From the IMG/VR virus record IMGVR_UViG_2700989487_000011: DNA of 4,481 nt; one strand, 5' to 3'. Of the stretch, positions 1-4,481 are shown piece by piece. Numbering within the stretch: position 1 is the first letter of the stretch; every line of letters begins with the position of its first letter. Source of the stretch: a virus (lineage: Duplodnaviria > Heunggongvirae > Uroviricota > Caudoviricetes). A program made the translations under genes and the position numbers. The notes below the pieces were generated by a model. It saw only the letters and a list, made by a program, of their open reading frames with translations, searched no databases and was not told the origin of the DNA.

Positions 1-283
1 CGGAAGCCTGGCGAAGGATATCGTTACTGCGGCGCAGTTCACGATTTTCACGTTCCAGCTCTTTCAGACGCTGACGTTCAGCGGTGGTGAGTCCACCATC
101 ACCACTCCCGGTATCCCGCTCATGCTGACGAACCCACACACGCAGAGTCTCTGGTGTACAGCCAATCTTTGGGGCAATGGAACAAATTGCCGCCCATTGT
201 GAGTCATATTCGCCCTGACTTTCCAGAACCATACGAACTGCCCGTTGACGGACCTCGGGGGAAAAACGTGTATTTTTAGTCAT
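1..283 (-). CDS. IS3-family transposase OrfA, N-terminal 94 codons (partial, runs off the window)
   Basis: Hand translation from the ATG at 283-281: [94 protein letters not shown], no stop before position 1. RBS AGAGGT lies just upstream. Not in the ORF track because it is incomplete. Confidence 0.85.
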
Positions 284-299
284 CCTGTTTACCTCTTTC

Positions 300-337
300 T
301 CAGGGAGTTTAGTCTCCAGGATTCCCGGGGCGGTTCA
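300..337 (-). repeat. Terminal inverted repeat (left end) of the IS3-family element
   Basis: Element terminus TGAACCGCCCCGGG... at 337 downward, immediately upstream of the orfA RBS. The inner boundary of the repeat is approximate because the partner end is outside the window. Confidence 0.55.
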
Positions 338-348
338 ATTTGATTTGC

Positions 349-846
349 ATGACAGTTTCAGGCCTGATCTTTATTTTCCTTTTCTTCTGGTGGCGGGCAG
401 ATATTTACAGGGTCACGTTTCTTAATCAGAGTATATCCCACTATTACATTCTGTTTAGCATGGGAATAGCTTTTCTGTTATCTCTGTTTTGGGTTAAGAA
501 GGGGATAGTAAAACAAAGCGGCTGGAAGAGTCTGTCAGCATACCTTAAGGTTTATGCAGGGATGTGCATATTTGCTGGATTTTTTCTGATTATACCCCTT
601 ACAACACTAACTTATTTTTTGCCTGGAGAGACATCGTCTTATGTTGCACCGTATCGGTATACTTCCGGTAGTTCAAAAAGTTGTTCTGGAGCTGAGGTGG
701 ATGACCCCGATCTACATGAGAATATTCGCATTTGCTATCCGTATGGCAATTATGAGTACGATAATATTATCTATGTTGAAAAGAAAATTAATACATTAGG
801 TGCGGTAGTAACATATGCACAGACCGCGCGTGATGATACTGAATGA
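349..846 (+). CDS. Small integral membrane protein of unknown function (3 predicted TM helices, about 70-aa hydrophilic Cys-containing C-terminal domain); prophage accessory gene
   Basis: ORF track 340..846, but codon 340 is TTG; the first ATG is at 349 (MTVSGLIFIFLFFWW...). Hydrophobic stretches at about residues 4-15, 31-49 and 63-90, with a K-rich loop between helices 2 and 3. About 40% GC by hand count. No obvious Shine-Dalgarno; the IS end is 11 bp upstream. Confidence 0.6.
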   Translation: MTVSGLIFIFLFFWWRADIYRVTFLNQSISHYYILFSMGIAFLLSLFWVKKGIVKQSGWKSLSAYLKVYAGMCIFAGFFLIIPLTTLTYFLPGETSSYVAPYRYTSGSSKSCSGAEVDDPDLHENIRICYPYGNYEYDNIIYVEKKINTLGAVVTYAQTARDDTE

Positions 847-880
847 GATAGTATATAGCGGGCAAGTTTTAGTTAATTTA

Positions 881-915
881 TCGAGGTAATATAATTTACC
901 TCGACTCGTTTATTC
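881..915 (+). terminator. Candidate intrinsic terminator downstream of the membrane-protein ORF
   Basis: Perfect 9-bp inverted repeat TCGAGGTAA (881-889) / TTACCTCGA (896-904) with 6-nt loop TATAAT, followed by CTCGTTTATTCT. It sits 35 nt after the 846 stop. The stem is AT-rich and the U-tract imperfect. Confidence 0.3.
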
Positions 916-1056
916 TGGTATTAATATTTCGCTTTACGATCGATTTTTATCTGATGATATCATGCGGTTTTCATATACTGACTTACTGTCTTTTCTCCGT
1001 TAGCGATTTTCTCCTGCTCAGCGATGATTTTATCTTTGGCTTCTAGTTAATTTCGC

Positions 1057-1278
1057 TCACTTCGAACCTCTCTGTTTACTGATAAGTTCCAGATCCTCCT
1101 GGCAACTTGCACAAGTCCGACAACCCTGAACGGCCAGGCGTCTTCGCTCATCTATGGGATCGCCACACTCACAACAATGAGTGGCAGATATAGCCTGGTG
1201 GTTCAGGCGGCGCATTTTTATTGCTGTGTTGCGCTGTAATTCTTCAATTTCTGATGCTGAATCAATGATGTCTGCCAT
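1057..1278 (-). CDS. TraR/DksA-family C4 zinc-finger protein (RNA polymerase secondary-channel binder family; possibly a lambda Orf73-type homolog)
   Basis: 73-aa ORF with CxxC-x17-CxxC motif (CCECGDPIDERRRLAVQGCRTCASC), and a size and layout like F-plasmid TraR. The only SD-like sequence, GGAAG, directly abuts the ATG. Confidence 0.7.
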   Translation of the reverse strand: MADIIDSASEIEELQRNTAIKMRRLNHQAISATHCCECGDPIDERRRLAVQGCRTCASCQEDLELISKQRGSK

Positions 1279-1330
1279 CTTCCATTAATCCCTGAATTGT
1301 TGGTTAATACGCTTGAGGGTGAATGCGAAC

Positions 1331-1354
1331 AATAAAAAAGGAGCCTGTAGCTCC
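1331..1354 (-). terminator. Candidate Rho-independent terminator on the minus strand between the hypothetical ORF and the TraR-like gene
   Basis: Minus strand reads GGAGC-TACAG-GCTCC followed by TTTTTTATT (plus-strand A-run 1331-1339). GC-rich 5-bp stem, 5-nt loop, T6 tract, starting about 20 nt after the stop codon at 1377-1379. Confidence 0.4.
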
Positions 1355-1376
1355 CTGATGATTTTGCTTTTCATGC

Positions 1377-1658
1377 TCACCGTTCCTTAAAGACGCCGTT
1401 TAACATGCCGATCGCCAGGCTTAAATGAGTCGGTGTGAATCCCATCAGCGTTACCGTTTCGCGGTGCTTCTTCAGTACGCTACGGCAAATGTCATCGACG
1501 TTTTTATCCGGAAACTGCTGTCTGGCTTTTTTGATTTCAGAATTAGCCTGACGGGCAATACTGCGAAGGGCGTTTTCTTGCTGAGGTGTCATTGAACAAG
1601 TCCCATGTCGGCAAGCATAAGCACACAGAATATGAAGCCCGCTGCCAGAAAAATGCAT
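1377..1658 (-). CDS. Small hypothetical protein in the position of lambda orf61 but apparently not the same gene
   Basis: Open frame of 93 codons from the ATG at 1658. An alternative in-frame ATG at 1592 (MTPQQENALR..., 71 aa) has a weak GGGA upstream. No recognisable motif. Start codon uncertain. Confidence 0.5.
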   Translation of the reverse strand: MHFSGSGLHILCAYACRHGTCSMTPQQENALRSIARQANSEIKKARQQFPDKNVDDICRSVLKKHRETVTLMGFTPTHLSLAIGMLNGVFKER

Positions 1659-1668
1659 TCAGTGGTTG

Positions 1669-1860
1669 TCATACCAGGTCTCTCTCATCTGCTTCTGCTT
1701 TCGCCACCATCATTTCCAGCTTTTGCGAAAGGGATGTGGCTAACGTATGAAATTCTTCGTCTGTTTCTACTGGTATTGGCACAAACCTGACTCCAATTTG
1801 AGCAAGGCTATGTGCCATCTCAATACTCGTTCTTAACTCAACAGGAGATGCTTTGTGCAT
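1669..1860 (-). CDS. orf63: Lambda orf63-type small early protein
   Basis: 63-aa ORF with SD GGGAGG 4-5 nt upstream of the ATG at 1860. Its position and length match lambda orf63 immediately downstream of orf60a in the exo-distal direction. It overlaps orf60a by 28 nt. Confidence 0.7.
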   Translation of the reverse strand: MHKASPVELRTSIEMAHSLAQIGVRFVPIPVETDEEFHTLATSLSQKLEMMVAKAEADERDLV

Positions 1861-2015
1861 ATCGCCTCCCGTTTATTATTTATCTCCTCAGCCAGCCGCT
1901 GGGCTTTCAGCGGATTTCGGATAACAGAAAGGCCGGGAAATACCCAGCCTCGCTTCGTAACGGAGTAGACGAAAGTGATCGTGCCTACGCGGATATTATC
2001 GTGAGGATGCTTCAT
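1833..2015 (-). CDS. orf60a: Lambda orf60a-type small early protein
   Basis: ORF track gives 1833..2021 (MAMKHPH...). SD GGGGAG spacing favours the second ATG at 2015 ([11 protein letters not shown]..., 60 aa). That ATG overlaps the exo stop as tcat at 2012-2015 (ATGA coupling). Confidence 0.75.
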
Positions 2016-2692
2016 CGCCATTGCTCCCCAAATACAAAACCAATTTCAGCCAGTGCCTCGTCCATTTTTTCGATGAACTCCGGCACCATCTCGTCAAAAC
2101 CCGCCATGTACTTTTCATCCCGCTCAACCACGACATAATGCAGGCCTTCACGCTTCATACGCGGGTCATAGTTGGCAAAGTACCAGGCATCTTTTCGCGT
2201 CACCCACATGCTGTACTGCACCTGGGCCATGTAAGCCGACTTTATGGCCTCGAAACCACCGAGCCTGAACTTCATGAAATCCCGGGAGGTAAACGGGCAT
2301 TTCAGCTCAAGGCCGTTGCCGTCACTGCATAAACCATCGGGAGAGCAGGCGGTGCGCATACTTTCGTCGCGATAGATGATCGGGGATTCAGTAACATTCA
2401 CGCCGGAAGTGAATTCAAACAGGGTTCTGGCGTCGTTCTCGTACTGTTTTCCCCAGGCCAGCGCCTTAGCATTAACTTCCGGAGCCACACCGGTGCAAAC
2501 CTCAGCCAGCAGGGTGTGGAAGTAGGACATTTTCATGTCAGGCCACTTCTTTCCTGAGCGGGGCTTTGCTATCACGTTGTGAACTTCTGAAGCGGTGATG
2601 ACGCCGAGCCGTAATTTGTGCCATGCATCATCCCCCTGTTCGACAGCTCTCACGTCGATCCCGGTACGCTGCAGGATAATGTCCGGTGTCAT
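2012..2692 (-). CDS. exo: Lambda exonuclease (Red-alpha), 5'-3' dsDNA exonuclease
   Basis: 226-aa ORF ([37 protein letters not shown]...) recognised as lambda Exo. SD AAGGTGG upstream; its ATG overlaps the bet stop (ATGA). Confidence 0.95.
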
Positions 2693-3474
2693 GCTGCCAC
2701 CTTCTGCTCAGTGGCTTTCTGTTTCAGGAATCCAAGAGCTTTCACTGCTTCGGCCTGTGTCAGTTCTGACGATGCGCGAATGTCGCGGCGAAATATCTGG
2801 GAACAGAGCGGCAATAAGTCGTCATCCCATGTTTTATCCAGGGCGATTAGCAGAGTGTTAATCTCCTGCATGGTTTCATCGTTAACCGGAGTGATGTCGC
2901 GTTCCGGCTGGCGTTCTGCAGTGTATGCAGTATTTTCGACAATGCGCTCGGCTTCATCCTTGTCATAGATACCAGCAAATCCGAAGGCCAGACGGGCACA
3001 CTGAATCATGGCTTTATGCCGTAACATCCGTTTAGGATGCGACTGCCACGGCCCCGTGATTTCTCTGCCTTCGCGGGTTTTGAATGGTTCGCGGCGGCAT
3101 TCATCCATCCATTCGGTAACGCAGATCGGATGATTACGGTCCTTGCGGTAAATCCGGCATGTACAGGATTCATTGTCCTGCTCAAAGTCCATGCCATCAA
3201 ACTGCTGGTTTTCATTGATGATGCGGGACCAGCCATCAACGCCCACCACCGGAACGATGCCGTTCTGCTTATCAGGGAAGGCGTAAATTTCTTTCGTCCA
3301 CGGATTAAGGCCGTACTGGTTGGCGACGATCAACAATGCGATGAACTGCGCATCGCTGGCATCGCCTTTAAATGCCGTCTGGCGAAGAGTGGTGATCAGT
3401 TCCTGTGGGTCGACAGAATCCATGCCGACACGTTCAGCCAGCTTCCCTGCCAGCGTTGCGAGTGCTGTACTCAT
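2689..3474 (-). CDS. bet: Bet (Red-beta) single-strand annealing recombinase
   Basis: 261-aa ORF ([37 protein letters not shown]...) recognised as lambda Bet. SD GAGGT upstream of the ATG at 3474. Confidence 0.95.
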
Positions 3475-3479
3475 CCGTT

Positions 3480-3896
3480 TTATACCTCTGAATCAATATC
3501 AACCTGATGGTGAGCAATGGTTTCAACCATGTACCGGATGTGTTCTGCCATGCGCTCCTGAAACTCAACATCGTCATCAAACGCACGGGTAATGGCTTTT
3601 TTGCTGGCCCCGTGGCGTTGCAAATGACCGATGCATAGCGATTCAAACAGGTGCTGGGGCAGGCCTTTTTCCATGTCGTCTGCCAGTTCTGCCTCTTTCT
3701 CTTCACGGGCTATCTGCTGGTAGTGACGCGCCCAGCTCTGAGCCTCAAGACGATCCTGAATGTAATAAGCGTTCATGGCCGAACTCCTGAAATAGCTGTG
3801 AAAATATCGCCCGCGAAATGCCGGGCTGATTAGGAAAACAGGAAAGGGGGTTAGTGAATGCTTTTGCTTGATCTCAGTTTCAGTATTAATATCCAT
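3480..3896 (-). CDS. gam: Gam, RecBCD inhibitor (host-nuclease inhibitor)
   Basis: 138-aa ORF ([32 protein letters not shown]...[35 protein letters not shown]...) recognised as lambda Gam. Internal Met41 (MNAYYIQ) corresponds to the short GamS form. Lies 5 nt upstream of bet. Confidence 0.93.
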
Positions 3897-3994
3897 TTTT
3901 TATAAGCGTCGACGGCCTCACGAAACATCTTTTCATCGCCAATAAAAGTGGCGATAGTGAATTTAGTCTGGATAGCCATAATTGTTTGATCCAT
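3851..3994 (-). CDS. kil: Kil, host cell-division inhibitor (FtsZ antagonist)
   Basis: 47-aa [47 protein letters not shown], which is the C-terminal part of the 89-aa track ORF. Good SD CAGGAG about 9 nt upstream of the ATG at 3994. Overlaps the gam start by 46 nt. Confidence 0.8.
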
Positions 3995-4127
3995 TTTTTG
4001 GGACTCCTGGCTGATTAAGTATGTCGATAAGGCGTTTCCATCCGTCACGTAATTTACGGGTGATTCGTTCAAGTAAAGATTCGGAAGGGCAGCCAGCAAC
4101 AGGCCACCCTGCAATGGCATATTGCAT
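3963..4127 (-). CDS. cIII: CIII, FtsH (HflB) protease inhibitor that stabilises CII
   Basis: Hand translation from the ATG at 4127-4125 gives MQYAIAGWPVAGCPSE..., with stop TAA at 3965-3963 (54 codons). Strong SD AAGGAG upstream. Too short for the ORF track. Overlaps kil out of frame. Confidence 0.85.
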   Translation of the reverse strand: MQYAIAGWPVAGCPSESLLERITRKLRDGWKRLIDILNQPGVPKNGSNNYGYPD

Positions 4128-4199
4128 GGTGTGCTCCTTATTTATACATAACGAAAAACGCCTCGAGTGAAGCGTAATTGGTATGCGGTAACGCCGCGC

Positions 4200-4442
4200 T
4201 CAGGCGGCCTTGATAGTCATATCATCTGAATCAAATATTTCTGATGTATCGATATCGGTAATTCTTATTCCTTCACTACCATCCATTGGAGGCCATCCTT
4301 CCTGACCATTTCCATCATTCCAGTCGAACTCACACACAACACCATATGCATTTAGGTGATGCTGCCAACTTACTGATTTAGTGTATGATGGTGTTTTTGA
4401 GGTGCTCCAGTGGCTTCTGTTTCTATCAGCTGTCCCTCCTGT
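4200..4442 (-). CDS. ea10: Ea10-like protein, C-terminal portion only; no usable start in frame (disrupted or mosaic, possibly a pseudogene)
   Basis: Hand translation of the frame ending at stop TGA (4202-4200): ...SWQHHLNAYGVVCEFDWNDGNGQEGWPPMDGSEGIRITDIDTSEIFDSDDMTIKAA*, matching the lambda Ea10 C-terminus from memory. An in-frame TGA at 4445-4443 closes the frame. The only in-frame ATG is at 4286 and a GTG at 4337. Confidence 0.5.
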   Translation of the reverse strand, partial: TGGTADRNRSHWSTSKTPSYTKSVSWQHHLNAYGVVCEFDWNDGNGQEGWPPMDGSEGIRITDIDTSEIFDSDDMTIKAA

Positions 4443-4481
4443 TCAGCTACTGACGGGGTGGTGCGTAACGGCAAAAGCACT
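4370..4481 (-). CDS. 3' end of an unidentified ORF entering from beyond the right edge (different frame from the ea10 remnant)
   Basis: Hand translation of the alternative minus frame: VLLPLRTTPSVAEQEGQLIETEATGAPQKHHHTLNQ* with stop TAA at 4372-4370, open to the window edge. Product unknown and could be a chance open frame. Confidence 0.3.
   Translation of the reverse strand, partial: VLLPLRTTPSVAEQEGQLIETEATGAPQKHHHTLNQ

Follow-up and report, generated by a model that had tools for sequence, protein, structure and literature searches.

A copy of IS629 lies within the coding sequence of a moron-like gene in a prophage of the phage 434 type, where the trinucleotide ATT was duplicated and nothing was deleted, and the 3' remnant of the gene is probably silent. 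A probability of about 85% was assigned to this reading as a whole. On this reading, an IS629 copy transposed into an accessory gene of the prophage, which is integrated next to ybhC, and hit codons 8/9 of a 176-aa protein with three predicted transmembrane (TM) helices and a C-terminal beta-domain. Positions 338-846 are thereby parted by 1.3 kb of IS sequence from the start codon, the ribosome-binding site (RBS), and the upstream regulatory region of the gene.

Contig and surrounding prophage

The window, which is the whole stretch of 4,481 nucleotides analyzed here, constitutes the entire draft contig JXVW01000214.1 of assembly GCA_000948465.1 (L007, identical to the window). Because the contig starts inside IS629 at its left end and stops inside IS1 at its right end, the window represents the non-repeated DNA left between two repeats that interrupted the short-read assembly. 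The genes that follow the membrane-protein ORF are all located on the minus strand and make up the early-left region of a lambdoid prophage: a TraR/DksA zinc-finger gene (1057-1278), a DUF1382 gene and a DUF1317 gene, exo (2012-2692), bet (2689-3474), gam (3480-3776), and kil with cIII (3963-4127). The lambda cIII thermoregulator RNA element (RF01804, 88.5 bits) was detected at 4082-4140 on the minus strand, at the 5' end of cIII, which is the position expected in an early-left operon of the lambda/434 type. Across positions 338-4100, a single mismatch in 3,763 bp separates the window from phage 434 (99.97% identity). At the right end of the contig, an IS1 terminus (GGTGATGCTGCCAACTTACTGAT...) occupies 4355-4481. 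The target of this IS1 was a homologue of the ea10 ssDNA-binding-protein gene of phage 434 and lambda (31216-31584 in the 434 record), and the 45-aa ORF at 4200-4337 on the minus strand is the C-terminal remnant of that homologue. A repeat scan and an Rfam scan of the region around the IS629 junction returned nothing relevant.

Identity of the insertion sequence

On the minus strand, positions 1-337 correspond to the left end of an IS3-family element, IS629; they contain the left inverted repeat (IRL, approximately 313-337), followed by the leader and by codons 1-94 of orfA (283 down to 2). The terminus at 337 was established by reading the sequence and re-checked by script (300-337 reads TGAACCGCCCCGGGAATCCTGGAGACTAAACTCCCTGA when reverse-complemented). 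The orfA gene starts with the ATG at 283 on the minus strand, is read away from the membrane-protein ORF, and matches PF01527 (HTH_Tnp_1) in a profile search. The initial annotation had the transposase diverging from the membrane-protein gene, with any read-through antisense to orfA, and this orientation was borne out.

The window's own contig stops inside the element, and the far side of the IS was read in a sister assembly, L004 (GCA_900450275.1), in which a 1-Mb contig is 100% identical to all 4,481 bases of the window, both IS junctions included. The complete element in L004 is 1,310 bp long, and its end is identical to window positions 1-337 at 337 of 337 nucleotides. It is bounded by imperfect terminal inverted repeats that begin TGAACCGCCCCGG (5'-TG...CA-3'), with the first 13 nt identical and 22 of the first 25 matching, and it encodes orfA (108 aa) and, in the -1 frame, orfB with an rve core (PF00665 at 1e-25). 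Nucleotide identity is 99.6% to the annotated IS629 of the O55:H7 phage JLK-2012 and 95.6% both to the IS629 of VT2-Sakai and to IS1203v. IS629 target duplications measure 3-4 bp (PMC3271280). Assignment at the isoform level was made at 95% or more nucleotide identity to a named copy; a length of about 1,310 bp with inverted repeats, two ORFs in a -1 frame arrangement, identity in the isoform range, and a duplication within the 3-4 bp range were all found for this element. At the level of sequence, the match to IS629 is far beyond chance, and the earlier designation as an IS629-like element is sharpened to IS629 by the 99.6% identity to the JLK-2012 copy. Because identity to the O55:H7 phage copy is 99.6% against 95.6% to the O157 copies, the element appears to be an IS629 of the Shigella/O55:H7 type and would fit 'sub-type II' of the published subtype scheme, which includes a sub-type of that name for Shigella/O55:H7 (PMC3271280).

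In its length of 1,310 bp, its TGAACCGCCCCGG... termini, and its prophage target, the element resembles the IS629 copies (isoforms IS1203 and IS3411) of EHEC, EPEC, and Shigella prophages, and it shares the orfA/orfB -1 frameshift layout and the 3-bp duplication with IS629 insertions elsewhere. Of the IS629 copies in O157:H7 genomes, 62% reside in prophages (PMC3271280). The present insertion differs from other IS629 insertions in its site, which is missing from 5,426 complete E. coli genomes, and in the closer relationship of the copy to those of O55:H7 and Shigella.

Insertion site in sister assemblies

The element in L004 stands between ...CCTTATT on one side and ATTTGATT... on the other, where the intact locus L003 reads ...CCTTATTTGATT... 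without interruption. In longer flanks, ...GATTCGTATCCTTATT precedes and ATTTGATTTGCATG... follows IS629, and the corresponding sequence of the intact locus is ...CCTTATTTGATTTGCATG... The xis-side flank joined to the far end of IS629 reads ...AAAGATTCGTATCCTTATT, and the xis-proximal flank sequence is ...GGGCGCTAAACATGAAAAAAGATTCG. The trinucleotide ATT is present on both sides of the IS in L004 and once in L003, which constitutes a 3-bp target-site duplication whose right-hand copy occupies 338-340 of the window. When the IS and one ATT were removed in silico, 2,687 bp became collinear with L003 at 99.96% identity with no gap, and the 176-aa ORF was restored. Given the target-site duplication and this gapless collinearity, the IS629 event is read as a simple insertion within codons 8/9 and not as a replacement or a deletion.

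These comparisons bear on several points of the initial annotation. A complete element with matching inverted repeats, anticipated there on leftward extension, was found in L004, flanked by ATT/ATT. The native promoter and RBS are indeed lost from the remnant, both lying beyond the IS. The upstream DNA was not replaced, as had been proposed: the promoter region and codons 1-8 persist across the IS in L004, with a 3-bp duplication and no deletion. Nor does the suggestion of a prophage altered on its integrase-proximal side hold for L004, in which, apart from the IS itself, int, xis, and the attachment flank are intact and the chromosomal genes ybhC and ybhJ are present beyond them.

In the genome from which the window derives, the IS might instead mark a rearrangement or deletion, produced for instance by recombination between two IS629 copies, with the integrase side missing. 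The contig ends in the IS, so that the other flank is out of view; a second, likewise oriented IS629 end some 10 kb distant in L004 would be a possible substrate; and matching duplications were reported at 21 of 47 IS629 sites in O157:H7 (PMC3271280). This alternative is very unlikely in view of the complete identity of the window to L004 over 4,481 bp, with both IS junctions, the clean target-site duplication and intact int and xis in L004, and the recurrence of the same junction in a third assembly, L006 (E. coli O145:NM PARC449).

In all, the junction occurs in three NCBI assemblies (L004, L006, and L007). L005, a fourth contig, ends 2 nt short of the ATG at 349 and probably carries the same junction. 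Of 5,426 complete E. coli genomes, 908 contain the intact locus and 0 the junction, and the exact junction was likewise found in none of the GTDB species representatives or in IMG/VR; the source and sister contigs came to light through a look-up of the exact protein. The IS629 junction is a rare, derived, lineage-specific allele.

Further insertions were observed in the same prophage. Besides the IS1 in ea10, an IS629 end identical to window positions 1-337 and in the same orientation lies at 19738-20074 of L004, following a truncated replication-O gene (88 aa; 18538-18804); the match covers the 337-nt end, behind which a full second copy is presumed. With at least three IS insertions the prophage is probably defective, and the early region, bracketed by two IS629 copies in direct orientation, could be deleted through them. 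A different IS629-like insertion is present in a related ybhC prophage of four genomes (L002 3070-4283; E. coli O157:H7 Z1830-Z1833). It is situated at the int/xis boundary, where int is frameshifted; in these four O157:H7 genomes the membrane-protein gene is intact and a truncated bet is joined to the nin region.

Native start of the disrupted gene

The IS terminus at 337 is followed by 11 bp, ATTTGATTTGC (338-348), and by the ATG at 349-351; an in-frame TAG is located at 310-312 and the stop codon of the ORF at 844-846. These positions agree with the initial annotation. The 12 codons at 313-348 form an open frame devoid of ATG or GTG, in which the TTG at 340 is the sole alternative start. 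Position 338 of the window corresponds to 4001 of L003 and 3001 of the phage 434 locus L001. From 338 onward, phage 434 and many E. coli prophages adjoining ybhC contain the sequence at 100% identity, and the reading frame there runs on upstream of 338. The initial annotation had considered that related prophages might carry 338-348 as the native region upstream of the same start codon. These 11 bp are native sequence; they are coding and continue into further coding sequence, and the gene does not start there. Accordingly placed on the native gene, the plus-strand segment 338-846 is a 3' fragment that begins with the second and third bases of codon 8 and runs through codons 9-176 to a TGA.

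The start of the native gene was determined by comparison with 13 homologues from Escherichia, Salmonella, Enterobacter, Klebsiella, and Cedecea (42-78% identity), all of which start 33 nt upstream of the position of ATG349. They share the N-terminus MK(K/N).SYP.L, in which M1, Y6, and L9 are invariant, and most of them have Val or Leu at the position of ATG349 (Met12). In one E. coli allele group (L008-L013), an in-frame TGA lies 55-57 nt upstream of the equivalent of ATG349; longer starts are therefore ruled out, leaving the ATG at -33 or ATG349. The Salmonella and Enterobacter copies have Shine-Dalgarno (SD) sites, AGAGGA and AAGGA, right before the -33 ATG, and the differences between E. 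coli and Salmonella in codons 2-11 are at synonymous third positions. Based on the homologue alignment, the TGA of the allele group, the SD sites in other genera, and the synonymous changes, the native protein is assigned 176 aa beginning MKKDSYPYL, and the ATG at 349-351 is its internal Met12 codon.

Were ATG349 the true start, as the initial annotation had assumed, the IS would sit in the 5' UTR 11 bp upstream, only the promoter and RBS would have been lost, and the coding sequence could be re-expressed. Gene callers do place the start of a 165-aa 'hypothetical protein' at this codon, in the window contig and in several IS-free contigs, and RefSeq holds the product as WP_052677247.1. Eleven upstream residues are nevertheless conserved across genera with invariant M1, Y6, and L9, Met12 is replaced by Val or Leu in most homologues, and TM helix 1 is predicted to begin at residue 5. 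The SD sites of the orthologues stand before the upstream ATG, whereas the native sequence ahead of ATG349 offers no SD at usable distance (anti-SD energy +0.6 kcal/mol). A start at ATG349 is accordingly regarded as extremely improbable, and the start 33 nt upstream is retained; it was the hedged option of the initial annotation, a truncated longer N-terminus, that proved correct, the first 8 codons having been cut off. Overall, the original observation is confirmed and its interpretation is partly supported.

Three conflicting models of this one gene are in circulation: the 165-aa WP_052677247.1, a 200-aa PGAP model (L003 3907-4509), and the 188-aa model of the phage 434 record, which has a TTG start (L001 2943-3509). 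The 200-aa and 188-aa models were rejected on the basis of the homologue starts and the in-frame TGA in L008-L013, and they appear to be over-extended.

Expression of the remnant

Before reaching 338-846, a transcript from the native promoter would have to run through the full length of the IS, in the antisense direction relative to the transposase genes. Translation of the 5' stub would end 22 codons into the IS, the product being MKKDSYPY followed by 22 IS-encoded residues (MKKDSYPYLNRPGFPGECFICELRLPDHRF-stop), and the remainder of such a transcript would be untranslated and exposed to Rho-dependent polarity; about 1.2 kb of untranslated RNA would be a likely substrate for Rho termination. 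The gene is most likely inactivated, and the annotated 165-aa ORF would be a silent pseudogene remnant.

Promoter-like sequences were sought with a consensus scan that detects sigma-70-like sites, weak or non-canonical outward IS promoters being outside its reach, and on the plus strand none was found in 1-348, at the junction, or in the full IS. One plus-strand match at 349-377 was discarded: it lies inside the ORF and would start transcription downstream of both candidate start codons. In IS2, another member of the IS3 family, the outward -35 element is located in IRR, and IRL carries inward promoter elements (PMC3219604). The membrane-protein gene faces IRL, and hence the outward-promoter end of an IS3-family element is not next to it. 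The terminal hexamer of the IS, GGTTCA, matches TTGACA at 2 of 6 positions. The arrangement is similar to known hybrid or outward IS promoters (the IRR -35 of IS3-family elements; IS1, IS2, IS5, and IS10) in that an IS end abuts an ORF at a workable -35/SD distance. It differs from them in that IRL faces the gene, no outward -35 or other promoter-like site was found at the IS end, and the ORF is truncated by its first 8 codons.

It is conceivable that sense RNA, if present, would yield a 168-aa product without the first 8 residues. The TTG at 340-342 on the plus strand is the native Leu9 codon and opens a listed ORF (340-846); initiation at this codon is hypothetical. A G-rich GGGGCGG (327-333) from the IS terminus lies 6 nt upstream of this TTG; its anti-SD duplex energy is -7.2 kcal/mol, comparable with the values for exo, bet, and gam of the window, and the IRL terminus of IS629 might supply an SD for TTG340. 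A protein look-up gave no record of the 168-aa product. These features, together with a frame open from 313, the retention of 21 of the 25 residues of helix 1 (5-29), and the presence of one weak terminator-like site and no more on the plus strand inside the IS, would favor a remnant expressed as a shortened protein of 165-168 aa from TTG340 or ATG349, through IS read-through or an unrecognized outward promoter. Such expression is judged unlikely: the scan described above yielded no plus-strand promoter-like site, IRL is the inward-promoter end in IS3-family elements, Rho would tend to terminate transcription within the roughly 1.2 kb of antisense RNA that goes untranslated, the cytoplasmic N-terminus rich in Lys is gone, and TTG is a weak start codon. 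A silent remnant remains the preferred reading.

The membrane protein and its cassette

The 176-aa protein was modeled with AlphaFold2 (pLDDT 86.6, pTM 0.73). The model contains TM helices at residues 5-29, 38-61, and 70-101 and a beta-domain at 105-171 (window positions of about 628-828); Met12 and the IS cut both fall within predicted TM helix 1. The C-terminal domain is confidently predicted as a five-strand beta-domain with two nearly invariant cysteines (C147 and C164 in the numbering of the 200-aa model) and, by the positive-inside rule, should face the periplasm. A match to PHROG 1416, annotated as 'unknown function', was obtained over the C-terminal 88 residues (E = 2e-50). Altogether 74 homologues were found, and in the aligned representatives from Escherichia, Salmonella, Enterobacter, Klebsiella, and Cedecea the two cysteines are nearly invariant; the profile match and the conserved architecture place the protein in PHROG 1416 and in an enterobacterial family with three TM helices. 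The sole Pfam match of the membrane protein was a sub-threshold one to DUF6057, NCBIfam and PADLOC gave no match, and Foldseek returned no structure with E <= 0.001 from PDB or BFVD. The best Foldseek match, a weak OB-fold-like similarity of the C-terminal domain, was not relied upon. A literature search on the phage 434 gene found nothing.

The intact gene lies between xis and exo, antisense to the pL operon, with terminator-like hairpins on either side. The upstream hairpin is located at L003 3684-3734, and the downstream one at 881-904 of the window (881-914 with its T-tract; plus strand), where a 9-bp stem with a loop of 6 and the tail CTCGTTTATT resembles an intrinsic terminator closing the membrane-gene unit; the intact locus has this site too. 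Upstream of the gene, a conserved stretch of about 110 nt (L003 3883-3978; approximately 4890-5000 in L014, L015, and L016) is shared by lambdoid prophages of E. coli and P2-like prophages of Salmonella and contains direct repeats spaced by 10 bp, TTGTG(N5)TTGTGCAG, of which L015 has three copies. In the phage 434 record the TTGTG-N5-TTGTG repeats are annotated as a site bound by CII. The analysis did not bear out a CII-type promoter ahead of the intact gene, there being no convincing -10 at lambda pRE spacing and the motif occurring in P2-like prophages as well. P2-like phages are not known to have a CII homologue, and the conservation of the repeats in P2-like prophages makes the reading as a CII-binding site uncertain. 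This conservation suggests either another regulator or a gene that moves together with its control region as a cassette.

A 70%-identical orthologue is found in Salmonella P2-like prophages between the portal gene gpQ and the replication gene gpA (L014-L016 5001-5531), and in one instance it adjoins a YafO toxin gene. The gpQ-gpA interval is a variable hotspot of anti-phage defence in P2-like prophages (PMC9122126). In Enterobacter, an orthologue of about 43% identity (L017-L019 5001-5510) is chromosomal and directly downstream of a LysR-type regulator gene. The antisense orientation to the operon, the flanking terminator-like hairpins, the conserved upstream region, and the orthologue in the gpQ-gpA hotspot of Salmonella P2-like prophages are features shared with phage morons (lambdoid accessory genes; the old/tin locus of P2), which are units of promoter, gene, and terminator placed on the opposite strand to the operon around them. 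The gene differs from characterized morons in having no Pfam, NCBIfam, or PADLOC match and no significant fold match. As to a role in anti-phage defence or superinfection exclusion, PADLOC returned 0 families, and the support found is the hotspot location of the orthologue. A tentative and rather doubtful proposal from these sequence features is that the gene is a horizontally shuttled cassette for an inner-membrane protein that could act as a new single-gene superinfection-exclusion or lysogenic-conversion factor and could have a disulphide between the conserved cysteines. If so, the IS629 allele would be a natural null mutant of an exclusion or conversion factor.

Implications

The insertion is an ordinary IS629 disruption of a prophage accessory gene, and it is already known in kind. 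Its main value lies in the annotation corrections, by which the 165-aa WP_052677247.1 (labelled Escherichia coli) should be regarded as the 3' part of a gene split by an IS, and in the pointer to an uncharacterised mobile membrane-protein cassette. The insertion could also be used as a strain marker. For the biology of attaching-and-effacing E. coli, it provides one more case of a prophage being eroded by IS629.
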